Part shown: positions 7,695 to 48,449 of the stretch, piece by piece
Layout: the number at the start of each line of letters is the position of its first letter
How positions within the stretch are numbered: position 1 is the first letter of the stretch
Origin: a virus
Direction: 5' to 3' (one strand)
Virus record (IMG/VR): IMGVR_UViG_3300045988_077100
Coordinates: 2,602-66,601 of that record
DNA length: 64,000 bases
The notes under the pieces: generated by a model
The model's input: the letters and a program-made list of their open reading frames with translations, nothing else
The model's database searches: none
Told to the model about the DNA's origin: nothing
Position numbers and translations under genes: made by a program

Positions 7695-8057
7695 ATGAAA
7701 AAGAGCTTTTTTGAAATGATCCCCGGCGTTGTCCGCCTGGACTCCCGCGTTGCTATCTACGTGCCCAGCACCACCGACACCGACCACCCCACCGACAACC
7801 GGCAGCAGGTGGAGGAAGTCGCCGCGAAGCTGTCCGCCATGTTTGGCGGAGCCACCGCCACCGAGGCCCGCGGCTACTGGGTGAGCCAGTCCGCCGGACT
7901 CGTGGGCGAGGCCGTCACCATCGTTTACAGCAACGCCGCAGCCGAGGACATCGAGCGCCACGGCGCCGAAATCGTCGCCATCTGCCACAAGATCAAACGC
8001 GAGATGAAACAAGAGGCCGTCAGCCTTGAGATCAACGGCGAACTGTTTCTTGTATGA
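7695..8057 (+). CDS. Hypothetical protein (120 aa)
   Basis: ORF track; GAGGAGG SD. Followed by the terminator at 8087. Confidence 0.6.
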   Translation: MKKSFFEMIPGVVRLDSRVAIYVPSTTDTDHPTDNRQQVEEVAAKLSAMFGGATATEARGYWVSQSAGLVGEAVTIVYSNAAAEDIERHGAEIVAICHKIKREMKQEAVSLEINGELFLV

Positions 8058-9127: not shown

Positions 9128-9517
9128 ATGCCAAGCGGGAGTTCTGAGCGCTGTGTGTCATTGTTTGAGTTTTGGGGAGACAAGAGCCAGTATGCGGCGT
9201 GGCTGCAAGGGGAGTTTGCTGAAGAAGCGGATTTCCATGCCCATACGCTAAACGCCTTGCGGGTGGCGATGGACGAAGAACTGACGGATACACAGAGGAA
9301 GTATATGGAGATGTTTTTCGTCTATGGCATGAGCATGAAGGATATCGGTCAAGAGTTGGGGGTAGCCACGGCAACAGTCAGCAGGACAATCAATTGTGGG
9401 CTGGATAGACTGTACCATGTCCTCCGCTACGCGAACCCCCGATACCTGACCTTTCCGAAAAGCCGCACGGCAGCATCTCTAAAGAAGGGGCGCAAGCGGT
9501 GTGGGAAAGGGTCTTAG
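9128..9517 (+). CDS. Sigma-70 region-4-like HTH regulator (129 aa)
   Basis: ..LTDTQRKYMEMFFVYGMSMKDIGQELGVATATVSRTINCGLDRL.. resembles sigma region 4 / small phage and ICE sigma-like activators. GGAGGTG SD. Confidence 0.65.
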   Translation: MPSGSSERCVSLFEFWGDKSQYAAWLQGEFAEEADFHAHTLNALRVAMDEELTDTQRKYMEMFFVYGMSMKDIGQELGVATATVSRTINCGLDRLYHVLRYANPRYLTFPKSRTAASLKKGRKRCGKGS

Positions 9518-9564
9518 GCTGAGACGAGAGATGTTATAACTGATAGTTGAAAGGATGATTTCCA

Positions 9565-9903
9565 ATGAGCACAATTTACGTTGGTGAGAGGCGGAGCGGT
9601 AAAACAACCATGCTTATCGAAATGTCTGAAAGGACTGGGTTCCCCATTGTTGTGAGAACCTATCAAATGGGGCGTGAGATACAGCGGCTCGCAAACCAAA
9701 TGGGAAAGAATATCCCAACGCCCGTTACGGTGGGAAACTACATCCGACGGTTTGCCTATAGTGGCGTTAGAGAACAGAAGTATCTTGTGGACGAACTTCA
9801 GATGATTCTCTCGGCAATGAACATTGAAGCCGCTACGGCTGACTTTGTGAGAAATTGTATTGAAATTCTCCGCAGTCGGCAGAATGGGAGGTCAGATTTA
9901 TGA
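9565..9903 (+). CDS. Miniature P-loop protein (112 aa)
   Basis: Walker A GERRSGKTT and Walker B-like KYLVDE. No further family recognised. Confidence 0.55.
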   Translation: MSTIYVGERRSGKTTMLIEMSERTGFPIVVRTYQMGREIQRLANQMGKNIPTPVTVGNYIRRFAYSGVREQKYLVDELQMILSAMNIEAATADFVRNCIEILRSRQNGRSDL

Positions 9904-10247
9904 GATGTACACCAGTTGAATTTCACGCGAGATTTCCTGTTTATGAGAATTACGATAGAGGTGGTTGCGACCACGCCCCACGCTTCCGGGATGCGAACGG
10001 TGTTGTTTATACGATCGATGCCATTAAAAATTCCTGCAAGGGGGATACGAACGTCCCGGTCATTCGGTTTCGGGCAGACGGTACTTCTAAAAGGATTGGT
10101 ATTGTCAAGTCTATCAAGTGGGACCCGGAAGGCTTCGTTGAGGTAAATGGAGTTTTGCGGTTTGGTGGAACGTGCGAAGATGTGATTCTCGATAAAACAG
10201 AAATTGTCATCGGAATGACGATCACGGAAATTGGCCTTGAGACGTAA
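9900..10247 (+). CDS. Hypothetical protein (115 aa)
   Basis: ORF track; GGGAGG SD; ATGA start/stop overlap. Confidence 0.55.
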   Translation: MRCTPVEFHARFPVYENYDRGGCDHAPRFRDANGVVYTIDAIKNSCKGDTNVPVIRFRADGTSKRIGIVKSIKWDPEGFVEVNGVLRFGGTCEDVILDKTEIVIGMTITEIGLET

Positions 10248-10268
10248 AGCAGTAGGAGGTCGAGAGAC

Positions 10269-10484
10269 ATGGCATACGTTCGGAAATACAAACAGGGGGT
10301 GCGGGTCAAGAGCATTGAGGACTTTCTGCATTCCCCGGAGGCGCAGTATTTTTTCTGGCATGGGAGGACGGTTCACAAACAAGTCTTTATGCACTGGCAG
10401 CTGGACACGCTTATCAGGGTAATAGGCGGAGGACGCCTTTACTTTGCGGATAAGACTGTGCCTGCGGATGGAGATGCGGAATGA
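10269..10484 (+). CDS. Hypothetical protein (71 aa)
   Basis: ORF track; AGGAGG SD. Confidence 0.55.
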   Translation: MAYVRKYKQGVRVKSIEDFLHSPEAQYFFWHGRTVHKQVFMHWQLDTLIRVIGGGRLYFADKTVPADGDAE

Positions 10485-10774
10485 GCTGCTATGGGTGTAT
10501 CTGCAACAACTGTCTCTATAACTGCGAGTTATTCAGCGCATACTTCACGCCGGGAGAGATCAAGGACGTGGAGGACGTCTGCTATTGCTGTGATGAGTGC
10601 GAGTGGTTCGATGGGGACTATACGAAGCGGAGCCAGTGGCGAAAATCGTGCGAAAAATTTCGCCTACCGGCGAAGTATAAAGAGCATCTGGAACAGATGA
10701 AGCAGAAGGAGGCTCGTGTGGCGGTCAAGCGCCGCAGGGCATTTACTGTGATCGAGGGAGGGGAAAAGGATTGA
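10481..10774 (+). CDS. Cys-rich putative zinc-binding protein (97 aa)
   Basis: CYGCICNNC..CYCCDEC clusters; translationally coupled to both neighbours. Confidence 0.55.
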   Translation: MSCYGCICNNCLYNCELFSAYFTPGEIKDVEDVCYCCDECEWFDGDYTKRSQWRKSCEKFRLPAKYKEHLEQMKQKEARVAVKRRRAFTVIEGGEKD

Positions 10775-11472
10775 ACGTAGCCTATAACATGGACTGCATG
10801 GAGTATATGCGGACGTTGCCGGACAAGGCGTTTGATCTGGCCGTGGTGGACCCTCCTTATGGAATCGGAGAAGATGGCGGTAAGGACCGGAGCCGCTATG
10901 TAACACAGAAGAACGGCTCAAGGATTTACGTCAAGGATGGCGGGTACGAAAAGACCGGCTTTGACCGTTTCCCGGCGGATGAGCAGTACTTTGCAGAGCT
11001 TTTCCGGGTCAGCAAAAATCAGATTATTTGGGGAGCGAATTATTTTGTTCTCCCTCGTGGCGGAGCAATCGTGTGGGACAAGTGCAATGACGGAGTCGAC
11101 CAGTCCGGGGCTGAGATCGCGTTCAACTCTTTGAACCTTCGGACTGATATATTCCGGTTCATGTGGCGCGGCATGATGCAGGGGAAGAGTATCGCAGAGG
11201 GAACAGTTCAGCAAGGGAACAAGGCGCTTAATGAGAAGCGCATCCACCCGACGCAGAAGCCGGTGGCGTTGTACACATGGATTTTGCAGAAGTACGCCAA
11301 ACCGGGAGACAAGATACTGGACACCCACTTGGGCAGCGGAAGCAGCCGCATAGCCGCCTATGATCTTGGTTTTGATTTTGTTGGGTGTGAAATCGACCCT
11401 CACTATTTTCAGGCGCAGGAAAAGCGCTTTGCGGAACACACGGCGCAGATCAGTTTGTTTACGGGAGGTTGA
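10771..11472 (+). CDS. DNA methyltransferase, N6-adenine/N4-cytosine type (beta-class order)
   Basis: DPPY motif (LAVVDPPYGIG) is N-terminal. HPTQKP and the AdoMet motif LDTHLGSGSS are C-terminal. TTG start. Confidence 0.8.
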   Translation: MNVAYNMDCMEYMRTLPDKAFDLAVVDPPYGIGEDGGKDRSRYVTQKNGSRIYVKDGGYEKTGFDRFPADEQYFAELFRVSKNQIIWGANYFVLPRGGAIVWDKCNDGVDQSGAEIAFNSLNLRTDIFRFMWRGMMQGKSIAEGTVQQGNKALNEKRIHPTQKPVALYTWILQKYAKPGDKILDTHLGSGSSRIAAYDLGFDFVGCEIDPHYFQAQEKRFAEHTAQISLFTGG

Positions 11473-11474
11473 AT

Positions 11475-12065
11475 ATGGATAGCTTGAATGCAAGTAGGAT
11501 AGCGGGCGGCAACAGCGCCTATGGGCGGAGTCAGTCGGACTTCTATCCCACGCCGCCGGATGTGACGGTGGCGCTCATGCGCTTTTTGAATCTTCCGCGC
11601 ACAACGTCCGTATGGGAACCGGCAACGGGAGAGGGCGATATGGCCGGGGTGCTTCAGACCTACTTTGAGACCGTCTATACAACAGACATTCTGGATGGGA
11701 CGGACTTCTTGAAGTCCAGCATTGACACAGCGGATTGGATCATTACGAACCCGCCTTTCTCTCTGGCGGAAGCGTTCATTCGCAGGGCAGCGGAGCTGGG
11801 CAAGCCTTTCGCGTTCCTGCTCAAGTCGCAGTATTGGAACGCAACGTGCCGGCGGAAGCTGTTTGACGAGATCCCGCCCAGCTACATTCTGCCGCTGACG
11901 TGGCGCCCGGATTTCTTTTTCAAGAAGCGGATGCCCGGAGAGAAGGGAAGTCCGCTGATGGACGTGATGTGGTGCGTTTGGCTGACGCCATGGAAGAATG
12001 ATATTCAGACGGTGTACCGTCCGCTTACGCGGCCGGAGATGGGGGCAGGAAATAAAAATGGCTAA
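11475..12065 (+). CDS. DNA N6-adenine methyltransferase-like protein
   Basis: AdoMet motif VWEPATGEGDM followed by IITNPPF (NPPF motif IV). Confidence 0.7.
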   Translation: MDSLNASRIAGGNSAYGRSQSDFYPTPPDVTVALMRFLNLPRTTSVWEPATGEGDMAGVLQTYFETVYTTDILDGTDFLKSSIDTADWIITNPPFSLAEAFIRRAAELGKPFAFLLKSQYWNATCRRKLFDEIPPSYILPLTWRPDFFFKKRMPGEKGSPLMDVMWCVWLTPWKNDIQTVYRPLTRPEMGAGNKNG

Positions 12066-12222
12066 GCTGGCGATTCTGCTATTTATTCCCATCTGCCTTT
12101 TCGGGTGGGCCTGTTACGGCATCTGCAAAGACTGGGATAAGGGGGCGCTGGCGTTCCTGACGCTGCTGTTGACCGGTTCGGCCTTCCAGTGCGGTTTTGC
12201 TTTGTGCCAGATGATTTTTTGA
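12058..12222 (+). CDS. Small membrane protein (54 aa)
   Basis: MAKLAILLFIPICLFGWACYG.., two hydrophobic segments. Overlaps the stop of the upstream gene. Confidence 0.45.
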   Translation: MAKLAILLFIPICLFGWACYGICKDWDKGALAFLTLLLTGSAFQCGFALCQMIF

Positions 12223-12240
12223 ATTAAGGGGGAATTTTTG

Positions 12241-12603
12241 ATGAAGTATGATTTTCGCGTCGGGGACTACGCTGAGACCAAGGATGGCAACCGGGGGTAT
12301 GTCATCAAAAGTGATCTTTTGTGCTACCAAGATATTGTGACGGGGTACATAATTACCGTGAAATTCAGCAATGAGGAAACCATGACGTATGAGTTTACAG
12401 CCAACGATGCGCACCGGCAGTTCAATCGCATTGGGCGTTATGACCTTACAGAGAAAGAAAAGAGTAAGATTGAACCATTCCAAGTCAATCCGTCACTTAC
12501 TGAGTATGCGTCAATTTTTGCAATGAGCGATAAAATCAACGAGCTTGTGGATGCCGTCAATGAACTGCGTATGCGGGATGCAAAGGAGAGTAAGGATGAT
12601 TGA
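12241..12603 (+). CDS. Hypothetical protein (120 aa)
   Basis: ORF track trimmed to the ATG after AAGGGGG. Confidence 0.55.
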   Translation: MKYDFRVGDYAETKDGNRGYVIKSDLLCYQDIVTGYIITVKFSNEETMTYEFTANDAHRQFNRIGRYDLTEKEKSKIEPFQVNPSLTEYASIFAMSDKINELVDAVNELRMRDAKESKDD

Positions 12604-13000
12604 GTACATCAGGGTTGTAAGCAAGCAGCGGCCCGCAAAGCGGGCGTTTGATATGCAGGTGGGGGCACATCTGCGTGTGTATATTGCCGGGAAGATCACC
12701 GGCGACAAGAACTATCGGGAGAAATTCGCCAAGGCGGAGCAGGCCCTCGCTGCTATGGGCCATTGCGTCCTGAACCCGGCCCATTTGCCCGAAGGTATGG
12801 AGCAGGGCGATTATATGCGCATCTGCCTCGCTATGATCGACTGCGCGGACGGAGTGGTTTTGCTGCCGGACTGGCGTGAGAGCGACGGGGCGCGATTGGA
12901 ACGGGCCTACGCCGAGAAAATTGGGAAAGAGGTTGTTGTGGCAGACCAGGGCAGGATCGATGAGTTTTTGGAGAAGATGGAGGGGAAACGAAATGAGTAA
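12596..13000 (+). CDS. DUF4406 / nucleoside 2-deoxyribosyltransferase-like protein
   Basis: ..VYIAGKITGDKNYREKFAKAEQAL..GHCVLNPA..DGVVLLPDWRESDGARLE.. matches my memory of DUF4406. ATGA overlap. Confidence 0.6.
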   Translation: MIEYIRVVSKQRPAKRAFDMQVGAHLRVYIAGKITGDKNYREKFAKAEQALAAMGHCVLNPAHLPEGMEQGDYMRICLAMIDCADGVVLLPDWRESDGARLERAYAEKIGKEVVVADQGRIDEFLEKMEGKRNE

Positions 13001-13601
13001 AGCCGTACTTATCAGCATCCGCCCCAAGTGGGTGGAAAAGATCGCCAACGGCGAAAAGGCCATCGAAGTCAGAAAGACCAAGCCGAAGCTGGAAACGCCG
13101 TTTAAGTGCTACATCTACTGCACGCAGGACAAGCACCTTGCGTTTATGCAGAACCAGACAGGCACAAACCTGATTGCCTGCATGGATGCCACTGCAGCAA
13201 TCCCGGTGGGCGGTGCCATAGGAAACGGCAAGGTCATTGGCGAGTTTACCTGTGACCGGATTTACAAGATTGACAAGGATAGTACGGATTTTCTTTTTAA
13301 GTCCGGGAGGCTATCCGTTTACAAGCAAGCTGCCGAAGAAAAGTGTGGCCTGCGTGTGGCTATGACAGACGATGAGTTGCACGGCTATCTTGGGCATTGT
13401 CAGGGCTACGGCTGGCACATTACCGATCTGCGCATTTATGATATGCCGAAAGAATTGAGCGAGTTCAAGACGCTATGTAGAGTCGATGCCGATTGCTGTG
13501 CCTGCCCTTATTACAATTACACCAAAATGGACTGTGACGGCCGGGTTATCGGTCGCCCGCCCCAAAGCTGGTGCTATGTGGATGACTTGCAAACCAAATA
13601 A
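12993..13601 (+). CDS. ASCH (PUA-like) domain protein
   Basis: MSKAVLISIRPKWVEKIANGEKAIEVRKT.. is a typical ASCH N-terminus. Confidence 0.6.
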   Translation: MSKAVLISIRPKWVEKIANGEKAIEVRKTKPKLETPFKCYIYCTQDKHLAFMQNQTGTNLIACMDATAAIPVGGAIGNGKVIGEFTCDRIYKIDKDSTDFLFKSGRLSVYKQAAEEKCGLRVAMTDDELHGYLGHCQGYGWHITDLRIYDMPKELSEFKTLCRVDADCCACPYYNYTKMDCDGRVIGRPPQSWCYVDDLQTK

Positions 13602-13925: not shown

Positions 13926-15089
13926 TCAGGCGGGCGCACAAGGCTTTTTTTCGAGGGGATGTTCTGCGTCCGAATCGGGGTCATGGCCTCGGTTTTTGTA
14001 AAACCGCTCCATTTTGTTTTCGGCGTTGAGCCGATCTTCTTTGGCAAGTTTTAGGTAAATCTTGTGAACGGTGTTGTGGTCGCTCCATCCGCCGATTTCT
14101 TGCACCTCCAATTCGCTAAGCCCCAGATGGAAACCGAGGGAGGCAAAGGAGCGGCGAAGTCCGTGAACACCGCACTCAGGAAGGTCATTCTTTTTGCAGA
14201 TCAGGTTAATGCCGCCGCGCAAAGAATTTTCAGTACAATCCAGAATGGGAAGGCCGGCACTTTTCCTCTGTGAAAGCAGGTCATAAAGGGCGGGGATCAT
14301 AATTTGGATCGTGCGTTGAGACGAAACGTTTTTGTTAGTCTTTTTATACACAAAGTCTCCGTTTTTATCCATGACCCGTGCGCCCTGAATTTTGATCCGC
14401 TTTTTCTTTAAGTCGATGTTTTCCCAAGATAGGCCGAATATTTCAGACCGGCGGAGGCTGTGAAGGGCCAGCAGCGCGCCCACTTCAAACCGGCTGCCGC
14501 TCACAGCGTCCACAAAAACAAGGATCTGCTGGTAGGTCAGCCAGGGAAGGTCTTTTTTTATGCTTTGAGGGAGACGGACTTCCGGCGGAGCGATGTGATT
14601 ATCCCGCATCACGGTGCAAACAAGGCCCCATGAATTATACACTGTTTTAGGGGACAGGGTTTCACTGGCTTCGTCGATCTCCTGCTGCCAATTTGATATA
14701 TCCTGTATTTTGGCATTGATCTTTCCGGGGAAGCGATTCTTTTTGATACACTCATATCCCCGGATCGTGGATGGAGACAAAGATTGATTTTTTTCCAAAT
14801 AACTGTCGATTGCCTGAAGAAGCGTGAGACTGCATTTTGCGTCCTTTTTAGCTTCCAGAAAGCCGGCGCGGATGGCGCGGGCCTTGGCTTCGCAGAGAGC
14901 GGCGGTATCTTCCGTGATACTTTGCCCTTCGGCCCGCAGTTCGATGTTCCACTTGCCGGACTTCAACTGACGTGGGGAGGGGACTTTGATCTCGTCCTTC
15001 TTTTTGCGCTCCCTAATCTGGCGTTCGCCGCACCACTTGCAGAAGATAGAATCATCATCAATGACACGCTTACAGTTTTTGCATTTCAT
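13926..15089 (-). CDS. int: Tyrosine integrase with N-terminal zinc ribbon
   Basis: Start at MKCKNCKRVIDDDSIFCKWCG.. (GGGAGG SD). C-terminus ..HGLRRSFASLGFHLG..GGWSDHNTVHKIYL carries the HxLR and Y catalytic pattern. Confidence 0.85.
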   Translation of the reverse strand: MKCKNCKRVIDDDSIFCKWCGERQIRERKKKDEIKVPSPRQLKSGKWNIELRAEGQSITEDTAALCEAKARAIRAGFLEAKKDAKCSLTLLQAIDSYLEKNQSLSPSTIRGYECIKKNRFPGKINAKIQDISNWQQEIDEASETLSPKTVYNSWGLVCTVMRDNHIAPPEVRLPQSIKKDLPWLTYQQILVFVDAVSGSRFEVGALLALHSLRRSEIFGLSWENIDLKKKRIKIQGARVMDKNGDFVYKKTNKNVSSQRTIQIMIPALYDLLSQRKSAGLPILDCTENSLRGGINLICKKNDLPECGVHGLRRSFASLGFHLGLSELEVQEIGGWSDHNTVHKIYLKLAKEDRLNAENKMERFYKNRGHDPDSDAEHPLEKKPCAPA

Positions 15090-15109
15090 GCGCACACCTC
15101 CCGTGTGTA

Positions 15110-15562
15110 TCAGCCGTGGAAGAACCCAAATTCCAGACAGTGCAGATCCAGATAAACGGCGTAAGCCACGACGAAGATCAAAAGGACCAACATCCATCGC
15201 AAAAGACGGTCCCGGTTGCGGATGCCGTGGGACTGACGTTCCACAAATTCCCGGAGAAGTTCGTTCTGGGCGTTCAGGCCGTTGATCTCCTGACGGTAGA
15301 CGTCCAGTTCCCGGCTTACGATCTCCTCAATGGTTTCTGGGGGTGTAGGATCTTCCGCTGGCTCCATTCCCAAAAACTGATCAATGGAAATTCCGAGGAA
15401 AGCGCAGATGGGTCCAAGGGTTTCCAGTGTAGGGGAATGGGTGGTAGCGCGGAACATATTGTTCACCGTGTTGAGAGGAACTCCGCTGCCGTCCGCGATT
15501 TCCTTGTTTGTGATGTGTTTTTCCTCTTTTGCCGCGCGGCACTGATCAATCAATGACAGCAT
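15110..15562 (-). CDS. XRE-family HTH regulator with C-terminal transmembrane segment
   Basis: ..ITNKEIADGSGVPLNTVNNMF.. HTH, then ..LLRWMLVLLIFVVAYAVYL hydrophobic helix. Confidence 0.7.
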   Translation of the reverse strand: MLSLIDQCRAAKEEKHITNKEIADGSGVPLNTVNNMFRATTHSPTLETLGPICAFLGISIDQFLGMEPAEDPTPPETIEEIVSRELDVYRQEINGLNAQNELLREFVERQSHGIRNRDRLLRWMLVLLIFVVAYAVYLDLHCLEFGFFHG

Positions 15563-16532: not shown

Positions 16533-16687
16533 AACCAAAATCAGGAAAACGGGTTGACAACCTGACCACAGTCAGGTATCATAAGCGTATAAACTGATTT
16601 TGGTCAGTTAATTTGACGGCGGTGAGGTTAATGGATTTTGCTGGTTTGGTCACTTGCATCATATCATTAAACCTAACCAAAGTCAAC
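16533..16687. promoter_or_regulatory. Lysogeny-switch operator cluster
   Basis: ACCAAA(A/G)TCA half-sites at 16533-16544 and 16675-16687, and in reverse orientation within the palindrome AACTGATTTTGGTCAGTT (16592-16609) and at 16642-16653. Palindrome CCTGAC-CACA-GTCAGG at 16561-16576. Confidence 0.55.
16554..16582 (+). promoter_or_regulatory. Sigma-70-type promoter toward the Cro-like gene
   Basis: TTGACA, 17 nt, TATCAT. The spacer contains the CCTGACCACAGTCAGG palindrome. Confidence 0.5.
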
Positions 16688-16713
16688 ATTTTTAATGAAG
16701 GAGGTTAGATTTG

Positions 16714-16926
16714 ATGCCTGCAAAATGGACCGGCGAGTTGGTGGGGGAGATCCACAACGCCGGATTGACGATCAAAGAGGTTGCGGAAGCAGCTGGAATG
16801 AACCCCAAGTACATCAGCACCGTGCTCAACAGCGACGGCGACGCTCCAAAGGCAGAAGCGAAACTGCGGGCGGCGTTGGCTCGGCTGACCGGGAAAGCTG
16901 CACCGGAGGATGCTGACGAAGCGTGA
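16714..16926 (+). CDS. Cro-like small HTH protein (70 aa)
   Basis: ..GLTIKEVAEAAGMNPKYISTVLN..; AGGAGG SD 9 nt upstream. Confidence 0.6.
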   Translation: MPAKWTGELVGEIHNAGLTIKEVAEAAGMNPKYISTVLNSDGDAPKAEAKLRAALARLTGKAAPEDADEA

Positions 16927-16951
16927 CAAAAAACGAAAAGGGGAAATGTGA

Positions 16952-17695
16952 ATGAACGAGCTTATTAAAGTAACCTACGACAATGACCGGCCTGCTGTCT
17001 CTGCCAGAGATTTGCACGAATTTCTGGAAGTTGGGTCTGAGTATTCTCACTGGTTCAAAAGAATGTGTGAGTACGGTTTTACAGAGGGACAGGACTATTC
17101 GCCATTTTTGACGAATAGGGTGGATGGCCTTTCAGGGAAGCCGAGACAAGATGCAATTTTAACCATCGACATGGCAAAGGAACTGTGTATGCTCCAGCGG
17201 AATGAAAAGGGCAAGCAGGCCCGTCAGTATTTCATTCAACTGGAAAAGGACTGGAACAGTCCGGAGAAAGTGATGGCCCGTGCCTTGCAGATCGCCAACA
17301 AGAAACTGCAAGTGCTGGAAGCCAAGGCGGAAGAGAACCGGCCTAAAGTGCTGTTTGCGGACAGCGTGGCGGCATCCAACACCTCTATCCTTGTTGGGGA
17401 GTTGGCAAAGCTGCTCCGGCAGAACGGCGTGGACATTGGAGGGACGAGATTGTTCCGCTGGATGCGGGAAAACGGGTATCTCATTAGACGCTCCGGTTCG
17501 GACTACAATATGCCCACGCAGCGGAGTATGGAGATGGGCCTTTTCACTATCAAGGAAACGGCGATCACCCATGCGGACGGGACGGTGACGGTGAGCAAGA
17601 CCGTTAAGGTAACGCCAAAAGCACAGATTTATTTTGTGAACAAGTTTCTTGGAGAAAAAACTGTGAAACCAGAGGGGGTAAACCATGGGAGATGA
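16952..17695 (+). CDS. Phage antirepressor (ORF6N/Bro-N-type N-terminus, KilAC-type C-terminus)
   Basis: ..VSARDLHEFLEV..HWFKRM.. and ..ILVGELAKLLRQNGVDIGGTRLFRWMRENGYLI... Confidence 0.75.
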   Translation: MNELIKVTYDNDRPAVSARDLHEFLEVGSEYSHWFKRMCEYGFTEGQDYSPFLTNRVDGLSGKPRQDAILTIDMAKELCMLQRNEKGKQARQYFIQLEKDWNSPEKVMARALQIANKKLQVLEAKAEENRPKVLFADSVAASNTSILVGELAKLLRQNGVDIGGTRLFRWMRENGYLIRRSGSDYNMPTQRSMEMGLFTIKETAITHADGTVTVSKTVKVTPKAQIYFVNKFLGEKTVKPEGVNHGR

Positions 17696-17966
17696 GGATA
17701 TAAACGTTTTTTGGAGTTCTGCGTTTGATGGGTTGACCTTGGAACAGCAGTTTGCAAAGTTTGGCAAGGTTGCAAGTAAGTTGGCAGATGCGTCCACTTT
17801 TGCTCGAATTGGGGAATATGACTCGGCAGAAGAGATTCTGATTGAAGCCACATGTGAGATTTCAGCCCTAAAGTGTAACCCCTTGTTGGAGTTGGCGATT
17901 GCGGTTCGCAACTATATAACTGGACTTAGGAGTGGAACCAATCAGCCTGATTCAGTTGATTACTAA
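17685..17966 (+). CDS. Hypothetical protein (93 aa)
   Basis: ORF track; SD AGGGGG. Confidence 0.5.
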   Translation: MGDEDINVFWSSAFDGLTLEQQFAKFGKVASKLADASTFARIGEYDSAEEILIEATCEISALKCNPLLELAIAVRNYITGLRSGTNQPDSVDY

Positions 17967-17986
17967 TCACGAAAGGAGGCGGCGGG

Positions 17987-18226
17987 ATGCCGCGTGTAAA
18001 GCTGGGGCGGAAGCCCAATGACGAGGTTTTGATCTCACTGCTGTGGGGCAGACAGGCCGCCATGGGGATGCCGGTGGGCACCATGGCGGAAAAGGCGGGC
18101 ATGACGCCGCAGACCCTACGGGCGCGGAAGAAGTCCCCGCAGGACTTTTCGCTGAAGGAACTGCTGAAGCTGGGACGCGCACTGGATATTCCCATTGAGG
18201 AACTGCGGGATGCCATCCGCTATTAA
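17987..18226 (+). CDS. Small HTH-like protein (79 aa)
   Basis: ..MAEKAGMTPQTLRARKKSPQDFSLKELLKLGRAL..; AAGGAGG SD. Confidence 0.55.
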   Translation: MPRVKLGRKPNDEVLISLLWGRQAAMGMPVGTMAEKAGMTPQTLRARKKSPQDFSLKELLKLGRALDIPIEELRDAIRY

Positions 18227-18245
18227 CGAAGGGAGCAAGAGGACC

Positions 18246-18380
18246 ATGACACCGACGCATATCAGCGCAAAGACGCTGGAAGCCATTGAAAAGGCGCTGG
18301 CCCACGGAGACCGCGTAGAGCTGATCCCGGTGAAGGACGGCGTGAAGGTGATCCGCATCCGGCGGGACGAGATCAAGTAA
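18246..18380 (+). CDS. Hypothetical protein (44 aa)
   Basis: MTPTHISAKTLEAIEKALAHGDRVELIPV..; in-frame Met of ORF 18195..18380, with AAGAGG SD. Confidence 0.4.
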   Translation: MTPTHISAKTLEAIEKALAHGDRVELIPVKDGVKVIRIRRDEIK

Positions 18381-18406: not shown

Positions 18407-18485
18407 CTGTCCCTAAGCGTTGGGGCAGAGGAGCAGAGCGTTGCTGACGCCGGAATGACCGGCGTGGGCAGCGCTTTTTGTTTTT
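18407..18485 (+). terminator. Two-hairpin element, copy 1 of 3 (UAAGCGUU-loop hairpin, 8-nt linker, long terminator hairpin)
   Basis: CTGTCCC-TAAGCGTT-GGGGCAG, AGGAGCAG, then a 17-bp hairpin (18437-18475) with AATGA loop and a T-run. Positions 18429-18479 match 35524-35574 with one mismatch. Confidence 0.7.
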
Positions 18486-29201: not shown

Positions 29202-29411
29202 ATGGCAGAGACGCTTGTAAATTTTGTGATCCTGCTTGTAGTGGTGGGCTTTGCGGTCTATGAGGCGAGCAGCGGGAATATTGCCATGACGGTATACGCC
29301 TGCACGCTGCTGGCGCTGTTTTCTTTGCTTTGGAAGATGGAAAGCATCGAACGGCACCTGAAACGGCTTTGCGAATTGCTGGAAGGGGAGGGGGACGATG
29401 GAGAGGACTGA
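29202..29411 (+). CDS. Small membrane protein (69 aa)
   Basis: MAETLVNFVILLVVVGFAVYE..TLLALFSLLW: two hydrophobic helices. Confidence 0.5.
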   Translation: MAETLVNFVILLVVVGFAVYEASSGNIAMTVYACTLLALFSLLWKMESIERHLKRLCELLEGEGDDGED

Positions 29412-29640
29412 GGACCACAAGCAGGGCAAGGAACTGCCGGTCTACGCGGTACGGCTGCGGGAATTGCGGCGGGCAAGAGGCGTGAGCAGCCGCCGGGTAT
29501 CGGAATACTGCGGTATGAGCCACGGCATGGTAGGATTTTACGAAAGCGGCATGAAGGAACCGAAGGCCACGGCCCTGATCACGCTTGCGGATTTTTACGG
29601 CGTGAGTGTGGATTACATCCTTGGCTTGGAGCCGGAATAA
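29398..29640 (+). CDS. XRE-family HTH protein (80 aa)
   Basis: ..VRLRELRRARGVSSRRVSEYCGMSHGMVGFYESG..LADFYGVSVDYILG. Confidence 0.7.
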   Translation: MERTEDHKQGKELPVYAVRLRELRRARGVSSRRVSEYCGMSHGMVGFYESGMKEPKATALITLADFYGVSVDYILGLEPE

Positions 29641-29698
29641 AAAAATTTTCAAAGTGGCTACTAAAGTTTACCAAATTAAGAAAACCTTGTGGAATAAT

Positions 29699-29741
29699 AG
29701 AGAGTGAGAAGAAATAAATTCTTTTCACTCTCTGTTTTTTT
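29699..29741 (+). terminator. Strong intrinsic terminator immediately upstream of the packaging genes
   Basis: 15-bp stem AGAGAGTGAGAAGAA/TTCTTTTCACTCTCT (one G:U), ATAAA loop, G then T7. Confidence 0.75.
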
Positions 29742-29759: not shown

Positions 29760-30725
29760 ATGGAACTGGAACCGATGGATACGGCGGAACTGACTGCACA
29801 GCAGGAACGCTATGACGCCATTGCCCGTGCCACCAGCGACAGCCTTGCCCTTTTTTACTGCTGCATTGAATTTGACCGGCCATTCGATATGCTGGCGGTG
29901 CCAAAAGAACCGGACGTGGGTGAGAAGTGGATCGCCTATCTGGACAACCTGCGGCTGAAAAAGCTGGACATGCGGCGGGGGGAACCCCTTGGGTTTCTGG
30001 ACGGGCTGACGGACATTACCAAGATTTTTGGCGAGGGGTTGACCGCCGGGGAATTTACCAAGGCGGTTGGCAACGAGAAGTCCGCCCGGAACCGGAAGGT
30101 GGGGACGGCACAGCAGCGGAAGAACTGGGGCGAGAACTCTGCGAAGAACCCCTACACATCTGAGGACTATGACGAACTGGATCGCATTTACGAGGCACTG
30201 TCCAGCGACCTGATGGCAGTTGGCGGCGTGAGCGTGAAGCAGGAGTTCATCCTGCGGGACTGCGCAAAAATGACGCTGGACCGGGACAAGATGCGGGCCA
30301 TCGGCCAATATGACAAGGCGGCCAAGCTGAACAAGATGGTTCAGGACAACCTGTCCAGCGAGGGACTGCGGAAAAAGGACGCGAAGCCCATTGACGATCT
30401 GCGGATCGACAGTCTGGTGGAGGCACTGGAAAAGAAGGGGCTTTTGAAAAACGGGAAACAATGTGCCCCGGACGAGATGTTCCGCATTTTGTTTGGGCGA
30501 TCCTGCAAATACCCCTACACCATGGACGCGGCGGAGCAAATGATTTTAATTAACGAAAACCGGATGCGGCAGAACGAGGGGCGGCCTGAGCTGACCACCC
30601 TGCCGCCGGAGATGCGGCTGCGGGACGAGTTGGGGGAGTTTGCGGAGGAACCCAATGATCAGGAGAAGGAGGCATATCAGCGACTCGGACTGGTGAAGAT
30701 GCCTCCGGCGAAGAAAAAGCGGTAA
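29760..30725 (+). CDS. terS: Putative terminase small subunit (321 aa)
   Basis: Position directly upstream of the large terminase. No motif recognised. Confidence 0.45.
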   Translation: MELEPMDTAELTAQQERYDAIARATSDSLALFYCCIEFDRPFDMLAVPKEPDVGEKWIAYLDNLRLKKLDMRRGEPLGFLDGLTDITKIFGEGLTAGEFTKAVGNEKSARNRKVGTAQQRKNWGENSAKNPYTSEDYDELDRIYEALSSDLMAVGGVSVKQEFILRDCAKMTLDRDKMRAIGQYDKAAKLNKMVQDNLSSEGLRKKDAKPIDDLRIDSLVEALEKKGLLKNGKQCAPDEMFRILFGRSCKYPYTMDAAEQMILINENRMRQNEGRPELTTLPPEMRLRDELGEFAEEPNDQEKEAYQRLGLVKMPPAKKKR

Positions 30726-32590: not shown

Positions 32591-32959
32591 ATGGCTCAAC
32601 GGAAGAAACGATACCGGCTGTACGCCATGGGGCGGACCCGGAAAACGGAAGAGATCGCGTATGACACCCGGTTTTACCGGATCTGCGCAGGGTACATTCT
32701 GCTGTATCTCACCGGACGGAAAAAGCCGGAGGGCGCAGTGGAGGTGGCCGGGGCGGACCTGGACCGTCTGACAGACGGGGACCGCCTGTGGCTGGCAGAC
32801 TGCAACACCATGATCCTGGCAGAAGCGGCGGCCCAAGCGGGCGTAACGCCGGAAGAAGCGGAGAAGCAATGGGTCAGCACTCTGGACCGGCTGGAATGGG
32901 AATTGCAGAAGGAGCGGGAACGCATGAAGGGAGGCGGGGAGCATGGACCTGCAAACTGA
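32591..32959 (+). CDS. Hypothetical protein (122 aa)
   Basis: ORF track trimmed to the ATG after GGAGG. Confidence 0.5.
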   Translation: MAQRKKRYRLYAMGRTRKTEEIAYDTRFYRICAGYILLYLTGRKKPEGAVEVAGADLDRLTDGDRLWLADCNTMILAEAAAQAGVTPEEAEKQWVSTLDRLEWELQKERERMKGGGEHGPAN

Positions 32960-34715
32960 ATTGAGGTCGGTGCAGTTCGCCTCGTACCCGAAGATATTCG
33001 GAAGGCTGCGGGAACTGGCGGCACAGTACGGCGACCTGCCCATGGACGCCGTAAGCAGCGCGTTTATGCGGGCGGCCAGCAACACCTACACCCGGAATAA
33101 CCCCTACATTCAGAACCGCCGGGTAAAGGCCATTTCCTCGCTGCCGGTGAATTACAGCAAGGACAAGGTGGCGGAGATGCTCACCGCACCGGACGGCAAC
33201 GAACAGGGCCTGCGGCAGGTGGCCCACGCGCTGGAATGGACGGCGTATCCCCTGTTTCACACCCGGAAGGTGTACACGGAAATGCTGACCTACCACAGCT
33301 ACATTGCCCCGGAGTACGCCACAGAGGAAGAAGCGAAGCGGGAGGACTTCCTGCGGGAATGGCAGCTTTTGGACAAGCTGCGGAAAACGCTGGACCCCAA
33401 GGCCACGGCCCATGAGATCGCGGGGCAGGTATTGCAGGAGGGGAAGGTTTTCTACTATCCCCGGGTCAGCGTGGACAAGCCCCACAACAAGGTAAACCAC
33501 GCTTTTTTACAGCAGCTCCCCAGCGACTGGGTAAAGATCGTGGGGTTCAACAACGTGTCGAAATACACGGTGGCGATGAACCTGATGTACTTTATGCAGC
33601 CGGGGACGGACCCCTTGCAGTTCGGAGACCTGCTGCTGCCCTATCTGGATGACTTCTACGCATCGGCGGAGCGGGCACCGGAGGGCACGGGGAAGCGGGT
33701 GATCTTCGCGGCGCGGGACCGGGTGGACCTGAACGTGCTGGAACAGCGGAGGAAGCAGACCGGCGGCCGCTTGGCGGGAGACCCGGAGGTATACTCCCAG
33801 AACGGGCGGTGGTTCTACTGGGTGACGCTGCCGGTGGACAAGATTTTCACCTTTGAGGCAGACGATGTATCCCGGAACGCCATTTCCCCGCTGGCGGGGC
33901 TGTATCTCTCTCTGGTGCAGATGGCGCAGTACGAGCAAATCCAACTGGAACTGGTGCAGAACCCCCTGATCGCCCTGTTTACCGGCGAGATCCCCTACAA
34001 GGATAAGTCCGAAATTACAAGCACAGAGGACGATTACCGGCTTTCCGACGCGGGACGGCGGCTGTTTGAGTACCTGTGGTATCAGATGCTGACAGAGAGC
34101 AACACCAGCGGGATCGGCTGGTTCACGGCCCCTGTGGAAAACATCAAAATGCACCAGTTGGCAGAAGCACCCAGCGCCACCAAGATTTCCGCAGCCGGGT
34201 ACAGCTACGCCATGAACAAGGCAGGGCTGTCCGCCATCGTCCCCACCACGGAGGACCCCAAGGCGGGCATCGCACAAATCTCCCTGCAGATCGAGGGAAA
34301 GTTTGCGGAGTGCGTATACCGGGGCTACGAACGGATGATGGCCGCCATTATGGACAAGCTGAATCTGAAATATTCGTGGCGGTTTGAGCTATTCGGAGAA
34401 ATCGCAACGGATGATGATTTGCGTGAAAGCCTGCGAAAAGATATGACCCTTGGGATTCTATCCGCCTCTGCGAAATACATGGCGTTATACGATATGTCAC
34501 TATTGGATGATTTGTCATTGAGCAATGCAATCATTGCATCTGGCATTATGGAGAAAAGAATTCCGCTTGCGTCTACCTATACCGGCGGTGGAGATGCAAA
34601 TAAATCCCAAGGGGGAGAGGCAAAAAGAATTATGAACCCCGGGGGGAGGCCAACATCTGGCGGCAAAGTAACAAGCGAGGGACAAGAGGCCGACTTAGAT
34701 ACTTACGGGGAATGA
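32943..34715 (+). CDS. Portal protein (590 aa)
   Basis: Size and position after terminase; called on gene-order logic. Confidence 0.65.
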   Translation: MDLQTELRSVQFASYPKIFGRLRELAAQYGDLPMDAVSSAFMRAASNTYTRNNPYIQNRRVKAISSLPVNYSKDKVAEMLTAPDGNEQGLRQVAHALEWTAYPLFHTRKVYTEMLTYHSYIAPEYATEEEAKREDFLREWQLLDKLRKTLDPKATAHEIAGQVLQEGKVFYYPRVSVDKPHNKVNHAFLQQLPSDWVKIVGFNNVSKYTVAMNLMYFMQPGTDPLQFGDLLLPYLDDFYASAERAPEGTGKRVIFAARDRVDLNVLEQRRKQTGGRLAGDPEVYSQNGRWFYWVTLPVDKIFTFEADDVSRNAISPLAGLYLSLVQMAQYEQIQLELVQNPLIALFTGEIPYKDKSEITSTEDDYRLSDAGRRLFEYLWYQMLTESNTSGIGWFTAPVENIKMHQLAEAPSATKISAAGYSYAMNKAGLSAIVPTTEDPKAGIAQISLQIEGKFAECVYRGYERMMAAIMDKLNLKYSWRFELFGEIATDDDLRESLRKDMTLGILSASAKYMALYDMSLLDDLSLSNAIIASGIMEKRIPLASTYTGGGDANKSQGGEAKRIMNPGGRPTSGGKVTSEGQEADLDTYGE

Positions 34716-34810: not shown

Positions 34811-35461
34811 TTGAATGTGAGCACTGTCATGGATTTGACCGGCAAACATTTTGGAAAACTAACTGTTATTTGCCGAGGCCCGGATCGTATAAATAAAAGC
34901 GGGAAAAGTGTTCGATGGAAATGTATCTGCGAATGCGGGGTAGAAACACTCGTTGATGGGCGTCACCTAAAAAATGGGCACACAAAATCGTGCGGATGCG
35001 AAAAGCAAATATCTGCGCAAAAAATGGGAAAACAGCAAGCAACGCACAATCGATATCCCACAAGGTTATATCACATTTGGAACGGGTTAAAAATGCGTTG
35101 CCAAAACAAAAACAATGACAGATTTTCCGCTTATGGAGGAAGAGGCATTACCGTCTGTGCAGAATGGGCCGGTAGTTTTGAAACGTTTCGAGATTGGGCA
35201 CTTGCCAACGGCTACCGGGACGATTTAAGCATAGACCGAATTAACGTAAATGGGGACTATTGCCCTGAAAATTGCCGATGGGCCACGATTGTGGAGCAAA
35301 ACAACAATAAAAGGAACAACCGTTTTATCACATTATGCGGAAGCACAAAAACGGTTGCCGAATGGTCAAGAGTAGTAGGAATTGCAAGCGGAACAATCAT
35401 TGCGAGATTGCGAAAAGGGTGGGGAGAATACGAAGCCGTTTTCACACCTTTATTGCATTGA
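34811..35461 (+). CDS. HNH/AP2-type homing-endonuclease-like DNA-binding protein (start uncertain)
   Basis: ..TRLYHIWNGLKMRCQNKNNDRFSAYGGRGITVCAEW..LSIDRINVNGDYCPENCRWAT..EQ.. recurs in free-standing phage endonuclease-like genes. Visibly more AT-rich than its neighbours. Confidence 0.6.
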   Translation: MNVSTVMDLTGKHFGKLTVICRGPDRINKSGKSVRWKCICECGVETLVDGRHLKNGHTKSCGCEKQISAQKMGKQQATHNRYPTRLYHIWNGLKMRCQNKNNDRFSAYGGRGITVCAEWAGSFETFRDWALANGYRDDLSIDRINVNGDYCPENCRWATIVEQNNNKRNNRFITLCGSTKTVAEWSRVVGIASGTIIARLRKGWGEYEAVFTPLLH

Positions 35462-35501: not shown

Positions 35502-35576
35502 CCCGCTCTAAGCGGTGAGCGGGAGGAGCAAAGCGTTGCTGACGCCGGAATGACCGGCGTGGGCAGCGCTTTTTTT
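35502..35576 (+). terminator. Two-hairpin element, copy 2 of 3
   Basis: CCCGCTC-TAAGCGGT-GAGCGGG, AGGAGCAA, then the same 17-bp terminator hairpin as copy 1 and T6. Confidence 0.7.
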
Positions 35577-35598
35577 CAACATGAGAGGAGGAAACCAC

Positions 35599-36132
35599 AT
35601 GGCAAAGCTGCGGGACATTTACCACTACGAAAATCCACGCTTTTCCCCGCTGCGGGACGCGGCGAGGCGGGCCACGGCGGCATACCAGAACGCCGCACGG
35701 GGGCTGGACACGCTGAAGGAGTGGGTTCTGGTGGAGTTTGGACTGGTACACACGGCGGACGCCATTCACCGTCTGGCCCACGAACAGCCCAAGCGGTTTG
35801 ACGAGATCGGGGACATCCTTCACCAGCGGCACCTGATGCAGGAATACCCGGAGACCCCGGAATACCGGGAGCGGCCGGAGGACATGGACGGCGTTTTCGG
35901 AGAGGTGATCCGGCTGTTGGAGGACATTGAGGACGCCTTGCGGGACTGCGTGGGTGCCAGCGAAAAAGTGGGGCTGTATCCGCTGGCAAGGGAATTTGAA
36001 AACCTTCAGATGGAGAACAGCAAAAGCTACGAGACCATGCTCTACGCATGGCAGATGTATGACAAGACCGACGGCAGCGCCACCAGCTATGACAACTGGG
36101 TGGAAAAGCTGTTTGACGGAGAGGAGGCGTGA
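35599..36132 (+). CDS. Hypothetical head-module protein (177 aa)
   Basis: ORF 35581..36132 trimmed to MAKLRDIY.. after GAGGAGG. Confidence 0.55.
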   Translation: MAKLRDIYHYENPRFSPLRDAARRATAAYQNAARGLDTLKEWVLVEFGLVHTADAIHRLAHEQPKRFDEIGDILHQRHLMQEYPETPEYRERPEDMDGVFGEVIRLLEDIEDALRDCVGASEKVGLYPLAREFENLQMENSKSYETMLYAWQMYDKTDGSATSYDNWVEKLFDGEEA

Positions 36133-40345: not shown

Positions 40346-40612
40346 ATGGATATTTCCGGATTTGGCATTGCCAGCGTGGCGGTAATCACGGTGATCTGCT
40401 ACCTAATCGGCATGGCTGTGAAGGCCACCGCCATTGAGAACAAGTGGATTCCCATTATTGTGGGCGTATCCGGCGGCGTTCTGGGCGTGGTGGGGATGCT
40501 GATTATGGCAGACTTCCCCGCAACGGACTATCTCACCGCCGTGGCAGTGGGCATTGTAAGCGGTCTGGCCAGCACCGGCGTGAATCAGATCGCGAAACAG
40601 ATGAGTAATTAA
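40346..40612 (+). CDS. Holin-like membrane protein (88 aa)
   Basis: Three hydrophobic segments (VAVITVICYLIGMAV, IPIIVGVSGGVLGVVGMLI, AVAVGIVSGLA). Resembles LL-H/Hol44-type holins from memory. Confidence 0.6.
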   Translation: MDISGFGIASVAVITVICYLIGMAVKATAIENKWIPIIVGVSGGVLGVVGMLIMADFPATDYLTAVAVGIVSGLASTGVNQIAKQMSN

Positions 40613-47128: not shown

Positions 47129-48256
47129 ATGATCACTTTTACCGACAAGAGACTGTACGCCAAGGGCATTTGCACGGCGCAGCTTCAGGACCCCTCCACC
47201 GGGGAGATTCTGAGCCAGAGCGACAAGTTTTCCACCGGCAACATTCAGTTCTCCGCCAACACCGACCCCCTGCGGGCGGGCCTTGGCAACGGCATCGCCA
47301 CCATCATCGCCAGCGACAGCGACACGCAGGTGAACTTCACCCGCGCGGACTTCGACCTGATGACCAAGATGATGGCTGTGGGCGGCGCCGTGAACTACAA
47401 CGCCGTTTCCCCCGTCTGCCAGACGGTGGAGGCCACGGGTACTTCCTTGAAGGCCGACGTGAGCAAGCTGGTGCCGGTGGCCCAGTACGGCTATTCCAAC
47501 ATTTTCTGCTACGTGCAGGAGGTGGGTGCTGCGTCCTCCTACGCTGTGGGCGGCGTCCCCTATCCCATTGACCCCGCCACCGGCGCCATTACCGGCTTCA
47601 CCGCTGAGAACGGCAAGAGCTACAAGGTGTGGTACTTCGCCAAGAAGCCCGCGGCCCAGGTGGGCATTGTGAACGGTGCTTTCAATGGCCGCATCGTCCA
47701 CTTCACCGCTCAGATCGCCGTGTATCAGAACGTGTCCGGCAAGAATAAGGGCACCCGTTGGGGGTGGGGCTATTTGATCGTGCCCCGCCTGTATCTGAAC
47801 CCCGAAGGGGCCAACACCACCGGTGACCAGACCAACTACGACACCACCACCATCACCGGGCGCGCCATCAACGAGGACGCCGATGTGATCTCCGCTGAGT
47901 GCGACGCCTGCGGCGGCATGGGCACCGTGGCCTACATGGTGCTGGTGCCTGACGAGGAAAGCGACGAGGTGGCGGGGCTGGCCGTGATCGGCGGCGTGGT
48001 GAGCGTGGCTGCCAGTGGCACTGCCCCCGTGAATGCCAAGTTGGTCATGAAAAACGGCGAACTGGTGACGCCCTCTCCCGCAAGCCTGCTGAAGTACACC
48101 GTGACCGCCGGGACTGCTACCGGGACCACGGTCTCCAAGGACGGCATTGTGACCGCCGGGAGCACGCAGGGCACCGGGAGCATCGCCATCCAGTATCCCG
48201 CCGAGGGAGCCGCCAAGTACACCGCGCAGGCGGTTCTGGAAGTCACCGCCGAGTAA
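47129..48256 (+). CDS. Putative major tail protein with C-terminal Ig-like domain (375 aa)
   Basis: Position upstream of the tape measure. C-terminus ..KYTVTAGTATGTTVSKDGIVTAGSTQGTGSIAIQY.. is Ig-like. Confidence 0.55.
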   Translation: MITFTDKRLYAKGICTAQLQDPSTGEILSQSDKFSTGNIQFSANTDPLRAGLGNGIATIIASDSDTQVNFTRADFDLMTKMMAVGGAVNYNAVSPVCQTVEATGTSLKADVSKLVPVAQYGYSNIFCYVQEVGAASSYAVGGVPYPIDPATGAITGFTAENGKSYKVWYFAKKPAAQVGIVNGAFNGRIVHFTAQIAVYQNVSGKNKGTRWGWGYLIVPRLYLNPEGANTTGDQTNYDTTTITGRAINEDADVISAECDACGGMGTVAYMVLVPDEESDEVAGLAVIGGVVSVAASGTAPVNAKLVMKNGELVTPSPASLLKYTVTAGTATGTTVSKDGIVTAGSTQGTGSIAIQYPAEGAAKYTAQAVLEVTAE

Positions 48257-48274: not shown

Positions 48275-48350
48275 CTTATCCTAAGCGTTGGATAGGATGA
48301 GCCGAGCGGGGCTGACTGCCGGGGAAACCCGGTGGTCGGCTCCGCTTTTT
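48275..48350 (+). terminator. Two-hairpin element, copy 3 of 3
   Basis: CTTATCC-TAAGCGTT-GGATAGG, ATGAGCCG, then a 19-bp hairpin (48305-48346) with GAAA loop and T5. Confidence 0.7.
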
Positions 48351-48449
48351 GTTCCCCGGCGGACGGGAGAGCATGAGGATCTCATGCTTTGGCGTATGCT
48401 TGGGATCATTTTCGTGAGGTCACGAAAATGGACGGAAAGGAGCGGGGAT

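Follow-up and report, generated by a model that had tools for sequence, protein, structure and literature searches.

The CAT modules of BglG, SacY and LicT are dimeric RNA-binding units of about 55 amino acids, and the RAT that they recognise folds as one imperfect hairpin, about 29 nucleotides (nt) long, with internal loops. The nut and put signals are promoter-proximal and processive, and they modify RNA polymerase without overlapping the terminators that are suppressed; boxB is a stem of 5 base pairs (bp) with a GNRA-like pentaloop. The targets of ANTAR proteins are dual hairpins with hexaloops in which position 1 is A and position 4 is G, the second hairpin being formed from the 5′ base of a terminator, and a dimeric protein that grips both loops permits read-through (PMC3369931). 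The linker between the two hairpins is about 5–12 nt long, and a linker of 3 nt abolishes control by EutV (PMC3369931). Here we describe an RNA element that occurs three times in a 64,000-nt stretch of viral DNA (IMG/VR record IMGVR_UViG_3300045988_077100, positions 2,602–66,601; the whole stretch is called the window below), together with a micro-protein whose gene lies just upstream of the first copy. The element is a real, widespread and apparently undescribed phage RNA motif, paired with an undescribed family of micro-proteins. The reading that we favour, with somewhat better than even confidence, is that each copy is a protein-dependent transcription attenuator, in which two hairpins, P1 and P2, are stabilised by the micro-protein to license read-through.

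The three full copies all lie on the plus strand (18407–18485, 35502–35578 and 48275–48353) and follow stop codons ending at 18380, 35461 and 48256 at distances of 27, 41 and 19 nt. Each starts with P1, a hairpin of 7 bp with an 8-nt loop of the consensus UAAGCGKU, or U-AAGCGK-U when written as a hexaloop closed by a U·U pair. P1 reads CUGUCCC-UAAGCGUU-GGGGCAG in copy 1 (18407–18428, with the hexaloop AAGCGU), CCCGCUC-UAAGCGGU-GAGCGGG in copy 2 (35502–35523) and CUUAUCC-UAAGCGUU-GGAUAGG in copy 3 (48275–48296). Each copy ends in an intrinsic terminator, at 18436–18485 (hairpin 18436–18476, then the U-tract), 35530–35578 (hairpin 35530–35572, then the U-tract) and 48304–48353 (a 20-bp hairpin with a GAAA loop at 48304–48347, then the U-tract). 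The predicted folds have G+C-rich stems of 17–20 bp, with energies of −27 kcal/mol or better, followed by U5–7, and, judged from the sequence, all three correspond to the definition of an intrinsic (Rho-independent) terminator as a G+C-rich hairpin with an adjoining U-tract. The copies fold far more stably than shuffled sequences (z = −4.0, −7.3 and −5.9 for copies 1–3), and 0 of 200 shuffles folded equally well.

Much of this architecture had been proposed in an initial annotation of the DNA, and most of it survived re-reading. The three plus-strand copies, the stop codons ahead of them and the long hairpin with its U-tract were all found where they had been placed, and the 7-bp first hairpin with its conserved 8-nt loop was borne out by the sequence. 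Copies 1 and 2 are indeed identical at 50 of 51 nt from the linker through the terminator (18429–18479 against 35524–35574), and the compensatory changes that had been noted in copy 3 relative to the other copies, along with its GAAA loop, are real. What did not hold was the 8-nt linker between the two hairpins, which is really a linker of 3 nt (AGG, AGG and AUG in copies 1–3) followed by the 4-nt 5′ arm and the first loop nucleotide of a further hairpin, P2.

This second hairpin consists of 4 bp and a hexaloop, RAGCGK, that matches the centre of the P1 loop. It reads AGCA-GAGCGU-UGCU in copy 1 (18432–18445, after AGG at 18429–18431), AGCA-AAGCGU-UGCU in copy 2 (35527–35540, after AGG at 35524–35526) and AGCC-GAGCGG-GGCU in copy 3 (48300–48313, after AUG at 48297–48299), with a closing pair that is C-G in copy 3 and A-U in the other two. 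The P2 loop and the P2 3′ arm are also the first 9–10 nt of the 5′ arm of the terminator, where they pair with the nucleotides beside the U-tract. Since they form the 5′ base of the terminator, P2 and the terminator are mutually exclusive. The computed energies are −49 to −51 kcal/mol for the terminator state and −3.4 to −6.5 kcal/mol for P2 alone. When P1 and P2 were enforced in folding, the hairpin that remained was apical, 7–10 bp long and at least 16 nt away from the U-tract, and for this reason the P1+P2 state should not terminate. Pairing of the P1 loop with the 3′ arm of the terminator in a pseudoknot was also considered and rejected: the 5–7 nt of complementarity are trivial, since the P1 loop equals the P2 loop, and copies 2 and 3 show no covariation between the variable P1 loop position and that arm.

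The loop octamer alone is no guide to the element, as TAAGCGKT occurs four times in the window against 2.4 expected, which is no enrichment; the match at 40557, tried as a fourth copy, lies in coding sequence and has no hairpin context. The composite motif is another matter. A covariance model (R1), searched with filters off, scored the three sites at 84–91 bits (E ~1e-17) and found no further plus-strand copy in the window above 13.4 bits, and a relaxed structural definition matched three times in the window against 0.22 matches per shuffled window; on both grounds, the motif is beyond chance. In the relatives L002, L005, L013 and L015, the apex of the copy-1 terminator is different and longer (GAUGGAACCGGG...), so copies 1 and 2 owe their near-identity to a recent copy event confined to this phage, which looks like gene conversion or recombination between the two.

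A scan of IMG/VR for an exact pattern gave at least 119 stretches: close relatives with the same three orthologous sites and one diverged phage, L046. Another 41 diverged loci were fetched through the neighbouring micro-protein and then searched with the covariance model, which matched in 40 of them, always on the strand of the gene, and a second, looser RNA pattern added 103 further stretches from many samples. The combined set holds 79 distinct cores from many phages, with 56 distinct P1 stems and 13 types of P2 stem. The initial annotation had held that the stems covary while the loop is kept, and had proposed that a covariance model be used to look for homologues that preserve both loop and pairing; such homologues exist in these 79 cores, and the comparisons of 41 and of 79 cores both upheld the covariation. 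Among the first 41 distinct cores, 97.8% of cells were paired, against 63% in shuffles and 34–47% in slid controls, a percentage inflated by the regular-expression core set, which demanded at least six of seven P1 pairs and three of four P2 pairs. Changes on both sides were seen at 10 of the 11 pairs, and the covariation score was 0.93 against 0.24. Matches to the covariance model and the pattern, which were unselected for P2 pairing, show the same. Three of the four P2 pairs covary (AU/GC/GU; GC/AU/CG/UA; CG/AU/UA), and because the covarying 5′ arm of P2 has no partner in the terminator, this supports P2 as a genuine alternative helix.

The loops and the spacing tell the same story of constraint. 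In the hexaloops of both P1 and P2, position 2 is always A and position 5 always G, and position 4 may be C, U or A across cores. Both loops have changed jointly to AAGUGG in locus L175, and in L202, the U·U of P1 is replaced by G-C with the hexaloop remaining. The linker is 3 nt long in 79 of 79 cores (AAG in 57, AAC in 9, AGG in 8, AUG in 3, CAG in 1 and AAU in 1), a length that the scan required, and all 35 covariance-model matches fit 3 nt as well; the geometry and spacing of P1 and P2 are constant over the 79 cores. These cores contain 53 G·U pairs, which would be A·C mismatches if read on the other strand, and this, together with the finding of 0 opposite-strand copies, assigns the structure to the sense RNA. 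P2 shares sequence with an intrinsic terminator in at least 61 of 78 cores, and most of the cores that failed this check are artefacts of a crude test (a TTTT run inside the loop). There is also a subclass without a clear U-tract (L198 9235–9305, L195 8586–8652, L186 10964–11032 and L171 11527–11597), typically the most downstream copy, in which a hairpin whose loop contains AAAGGAGG comes after P1 and P2; it may be a different expression platform.

The motif does not appear to have been described before; the initial annotation, too, had not recognised it as a known one. Rfam 15, run over the whole window at gathering thresholds, placed no family at the three sites, and around copy 1 at E ≤ 10, its best match reached 13.4 bits (E > 3), so that no family was assigned there. 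A literature search found no paper that describes the motif or the micro-protein.

The gene for the micro-protein (18246–18380, plus strand) is the last of the early rightward operon and encodes 44 amino acids, MTPTHISAKTLEAIEKALAHGDRVELIPVKDGVKVIRIRRDEIK. A longer form of 56 amino acids, starting at 18210, is also possible, and Shine–Dalgarno-like sequences (GAAGGGAG/AGAGGA) lie upstream of the start. Members of the family are 39–60 amino acids long, with a nearly invariant core, GDRVELIPVKDGVKV, and 16 invariant alignment columns; one search gave 388 clusters and an exhaustive search 451 representatives at 50% identity. Among the best 150 of the 451 representatives, all of 41–129 amino acids, no fusion to an informative domain was found. 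Pfam and NCBIfam hold no family for the protein, and PHROGs gave only phrog_29211 (E = 0.0026), the function of which is unannotated. An AlphaFold2 model (pLDDT 85.7) predicts one helix and a beta-hairpin, and the latter is basic. Neither a sequence search of the PDB (E > 0.8) nor a Foldseek search of the model against the PDB (E > 0.9) gave anything significant. Kinship with CsrA and with half of an AbrB/SpoVT-type fold was tried with hhalign and dismissed at probabilities of 1.6% and 0.1%, and no similarity in sequence, profile or fold was seen to the known RNA-binding folds compared (CsrA, AbrB/SpoVT, CAT and ANTAR). Gene callers often skip the micro-protein or mis-start it, and they tend to put spurious open reading frames (ORFs) over the terminator.

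The case for the micro-protein as a partner of the motif comes from searches made in both directions. When loci were fetched with the motif only, a micro-protein ORF was present upstream on the same strand in 96 of 102, mostly between −14 and +250 nt from P1, and in four of the six exceptions the sequence available upstream is shorter than 520 nt. When loci were fetched with the protein only, a strict motif lay downstream on the same strand in 82 of 83, and none of the 83 had a bona fide upstream motif or one on the opposite strand; ten "upstream" motifs that appeared under a relaxed definition were false positives with unrelated loops. The pair is found in at least four gene contexts, namely the early operon of the window, the interval between the prohead protease and major capsid genes in L046 (where the stop codon lies inside P1), a minor capsid–scaffold setting in L123/L172 and Flavonifractor phage Chenonceau, and a myovirus-type head module in L308. 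The micro-protein is the sole neighbour common to these four contexts by Pfam labels and ORF lists, the small flanking ORFs not being sequence-compared. The usual place of the pair, in most phages, is immediately ahead of the scaffold and capsid genes, and in the cultured phage Chenonceau (ON453904.1), where the micro-protein is WAK79802.1, the element lies just upstream of the scaffold gene. In some phages, further "orphan" copies occur downstream (three in L171–L174, and copies 2 and 3 in the window), which fits a factor acting in trans. Because its linkage to the motif is near-universal, polar and independent of context, the micro-protein is the leading candidate for that factor.

The regulators that the initial annotation had put forward for this role fared less well. 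They were the products of the genes at 9128 (sigma-70 region-4-like, beyond the integrase), 29398 (Cro/CI-type helix-turn-helix) and "16714", which is the ORF 16695–16916 (no family), and none is linked to the motif; the gene that tracks it is the 44-amino-acid ORF at 18246–18380, which had not been flagged. In the public record of Chenonceau, WAK79802.1 is annotated only as a hypothetical protein, and another hypothetical coding sequence, WAK79808.1, overlaps the 3′ end of the terminator and the U-tract of the element (L307 5665–5778, which is ON453904.1 26283–26396) and is probably spurious. The distance from the micro-protein stop codon to P1 ranges across loci from −14 to more than 1500 nt. 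In many loci (those at a distance of −14, such as L217, L227 and L233, and L046 at 7840–7866 on the minus strand), the micro-protein ORF runs through the P1 5′ arm and loop (...SKR*), and its UGA stop codon is assembled from the last U of the loop and the two nucleotides that open the P1 3′ arm. Translation would therefore melt P1 in such loci.

From the two competing structures, we arrive at the following proposal for how the element might work. By default, the RNA would fold into P1 and the very stable intrinsic terminator, and RNA polymerase would stop. In the alternative fold, P1 would be accompanied by the weak 4-bp P2, which would consume the first 9–10 nt of the terminator 5′ arm and so allow read-through. 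A multimeric RNA-binding factor would grip both of the like hexaloops (R-A-G-C-G-K) at their fixed spacing and would keep P2 closed for an interval of 30–40 nt before the terminator 3′ arm emerges. The factor would most likely be the micro-protein, encoded just upstream of the first copy in essentially every motif-bearing phage. As it accumulated, the replication and recombination genes behind copy 1 would be licensed first, then the genes behind copy 2, which follow the portal-like and HNH genes and are probably head genes, and then the tape-measure and distal tail genes behind copy 3. Since its gene always precedes every target, the micro-protein would be a self-licensing timer. In the window, no sigma-70-like promoter was found after any of the three copies, so read-through would be needed for the genes that follow. 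We give about even chances to a bolder version of this proposal, in which a protein of 39–60 amino acids would be the smallest stand-alone sequence-specific RNA-binding antiterminator known, a multimer gripping two AGCG hexaloops, and the cassette of gut Clostridia phages would be a portable self-licensing timer placed before early, head and tail blocks.

The gene order of the window gives this scheme its setting. A tyrosine integrase gene (13926–15197, minus strand), the product of which has a zinc-ribbon-like segment at its N-terminus (weak matches to DZR, Zn_ribbon_3 and DUF7575), is separated by two minus-strand helix-turn-helix repressor-like genes from a strong promoter-like site at 16554–16582 on the plus strand. 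The early operon (16695–18380, plus strand) comprises a 73-amino-acid ORF, the Ant antirepressor, a 93-amino-acid ORF, a helix-turn-helix protein and the micro-protein, and copy 1 divides this immediate-early operon from the recombination and replication genes (SLT, YqaJ, DUF1351, RecT, SSB, a replisome organiser, a G39P-like protein, DUF1064, a C5-methylase and others). Ahead of copy 2 are a 321-amino-acid ORF, a 617-amino-acid ORF, a portal-like gene (32943–34715) and an HNH endonuclease gene (34811–35461), and behind it are a 183-amino-acid ORF (35581–36132) and then one of 455 amino acids; the 183-amino-acid product was considered as a small terminase and has no support as such in Pfam or PHROGs. 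Copy 3 stands between a 375-amino-acid ORF (47129–48256) and the tape-measure gene or region (48994–53802). The early suggestion that the three copies partition early, head and tail transcription units is therefore only roughly right: copy 1 follows the immediate-early genes and copy 3 precedes the tape-measure gene; copy 2 follows the portal-like and HNH genes, and there is an extra plain terminator at 29696–29736. The latter (plus strand) is AT-rich and strong, with 18 pairs and then U7, lacks the P1/P2 module and lies in an AT-rich intergenic island between the helix-turn-helix gene at 29398–29640 and an ORF at 29760.

Other features of the window stand apart from the three copies. A match to the int-alpA RNA (Rfam RF02996; 34728–34790, plus strand; 40.9 bits against a gathering score of 35.8) falls in the gap that separates the portal-like gene from the HNH gene, some 20 nt ahead of the HNH start. 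AlpA has been reported to be an antiterminator (PMC7969949), and the match may be a second RNA-based control element in this phage. Two tRNA genes lie near the left end (508–579 and 1228–1298, minus strand). The plus-strand block at 9128–13601, beyond the integrase, encodes the sigma-70 region-4-like protein, two DNA methylase-like proteins, DUF4406 and ASCH, and may be a separate mobile element rather than part of the motif-bearing prophage.

Several points weigh against the attenuator proposal. That the micro-protein binds the loops, and that this binding leads to read-through, are both steps that we infer. No relative of known function was detected for the protein in Pfam, NCBIfam, PDB, Foldseek or hhalign, its net charge is only about +2, and a comparison of its residues with the loop sequences gave no clear signal of co-variation, because the loops are too conserved. 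The placement just before capsid genes in most phages is one where the benefit of a default-on terminator is not obvious. Some 9 of 78 cores are truly without a U-tract after P2, so termination is not the output everywhere, and the stop codon embedded in P1 hints at an additional translational component or coupling. The plain terminator at 29696–29736, which has no P1/P2, needs some other bypass or a late promoter behind it, and late promoters of another type may follow the copies themselves. The protein's lack of a recognisable RNA-binding fold also speaks for a switch that operates as described with a different factor on P1 and P2, whether another phage protein, a host RNA-binding regulator (for example, of the ANTAR type) or a small ligand, the micro-protein being a syntenic passenger. 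Such a factor is made plausible by an architecture equal to that of ANTAR targets, with dual hairpins, hexaloop A and G three apart and P2 at the base of the terminator (PMC3369931). We nevertheless consider it rather unlikely, as the linkage of protein and motif is near-universal over unrelated contexts in which no other neighbour is shared by Pfam label. What speaks against a factor of the ANTAR type is that A and G occupy loop positions 2 and 5 instead of 1 and 4, that the 3-nt linker is one that cripples EutV control, and that no ANTAR domain was found among some 60 phage ORFs of the window, a scan of the phage only with the host genome outside it.

The alternatives that change the output or dispense with the factor are less probable still. 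If the micro-protein bound P1 and P2 to protect or process mRNA 3′ ends, or to control how neighbouring genes are translated, it would be of secondary importance that P2 overlaps the terminator base; the subclass with the AAAGGAGG hairpin loop and no U-tract would be at home in such a scheme, as would the usual site before highly expressed scaffold and capsid genes, which is odd for a default terminator. This is improbable given that P2 overlaps exactly the terminator nucleotides adjacent to the U-tract in about 85% of cores, and that its 5′ arm covaries with a segment that also pairs in the terminator, the signature of attenuation. Ribosome-mediated attenuation, in which translation of the upstream ORF would melt or mask P1 and P2 with no trans-acting factor, draws on the many loci where the micro-protein UGA falls at the junction of the P1 loop and 3′ arm. 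It is very improbable: the stop-to-P1 distance varies too widely for it and amounts to 27, 41 and 19 nt in the window, copies 2 and 3 there follow unrelated genes, the 16 invariant columns show conservation at the amino-acid level, unlike a leader peptide, and the two identical loops would be left unexplained. The near-identity of copies 1 and 2, as after a duplication or gene conversion, might recall ordinary terminators with an incidental hairpin or a repeated DNA element, such as a miniature mobile element or recombination site. That idea is hardly tenable, being already contradicted by covariation in alignments that do not come from a single recent clone: the 79 distinct cores have pervasive compensatory changes, invariant loop nucleotides and constant spacing, and their G·U pairs and the strictly co-directional orientation with transcription point the same way. 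Nor is it a host-wide repeat, since the strict exact pattern matched once in 185,579 species genomes, in a prophage of a Clostridia metagenome-assembled genome; this pattern was too narrow, because the GAGC and GCTGA that it demanded are both lineage-specific.

To our knowledge, almost no study has addressed the timing of gene expression in the phages of gut Clostridia (Oscillospiraceae and relatives). If the attenuator reading is true, hundreds of these phages carry a concrete, testable control device, and a protein of about 40 amino acids with a 39-nt RNA target would give synthetic biology an orthogonal terminator switch of very small size. Should the micro-protein be the effector, it would represent a new RNA-binding family, and ANTAR-style dual-hairpin attenuation would have arisen with unrelated components. 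Experiments are feasible because the cultured pair of Flavonifractor plautii and phage Chenonceau has both parts.

Set beside the known systems, the element is supported as an RNA recognition element coupled to an intrinsic terminator, as the initial annotation had it. Of the two analogies offered there, the protein-controlled attenuator was apt, in the local form of the ANTAR or RAT type, and the nut/boxB or put site was not: because P2 carries the same loop as P1 and overlaps the terminator, the element is a local attenuator and not a processive one. It does share with lambda N/nut and HK022 put the use of phage RNA signals to pass terminators between temporal gene classes, with an early product acting on downstream terminators. 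The differences are that the loops here are of 8 nt and a hexaloop, that each terminator has its own overlapping copy and that the RNA folds compete; the three window copies do not fit a lambda-type nut site (boxA/boxB) and have no Rfam match either. With HutP, TRAP and PyrR, it has in common the selection by a protein between an antiterminator and a terminator fold, but those proteins read repeated triplets or a distinct binding loop and respond to metabolites, and no similarity of RNA or protein to them was found. In the CAT/RAT systems, the weak hairpin that shares sequence with the terminator 5′ arm is held together by an RNA-binding module of very small size, as is proposed here; there is no similarity in sequence or profile (no Pfam match), and neither a PRD nor sugar control is found in the present case.

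The likeness to the targets of ANTAR proteins (EutV, AmiR and NasR) is the closest. Both have two tandem hairpins of at least 3 bp each (here 7 bp in P1 and 4 bp in P2, both covarying), both have like hexaloops with a conserved A-N-N-G spacing, in a register shifted by one here, and in both the second hairpin comes from the 5′ base of the terminator (at least 61 of 78 cores here); termination, the default state of the ANTAR targets, would be the default here too. They differ in that the A and G stand here at positions 2 and 5, P1 has 7 bp and two extra U residues that close the hexaloop as U·U, and the linker is fixed at 3 nt as against 5–12 nt. No ANTAR protein (PF03861) is encoded among the approximately 60 window ORFs, which are phage ORFs only, and the linked protein, of 39–60 amino acids, is a predicted helix plus beta-hairpin, whereas ANTAR is helical. 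Several copies lie here inside phage operons, in contrast to the metabolic leader of the ANTAR systems. By analogy, the element would thus work like an ANTAR or CAT–RAT attenuator while being a member of neither family; for motif and micro-protein together, the regulatory logic is one already known, and the components are new.

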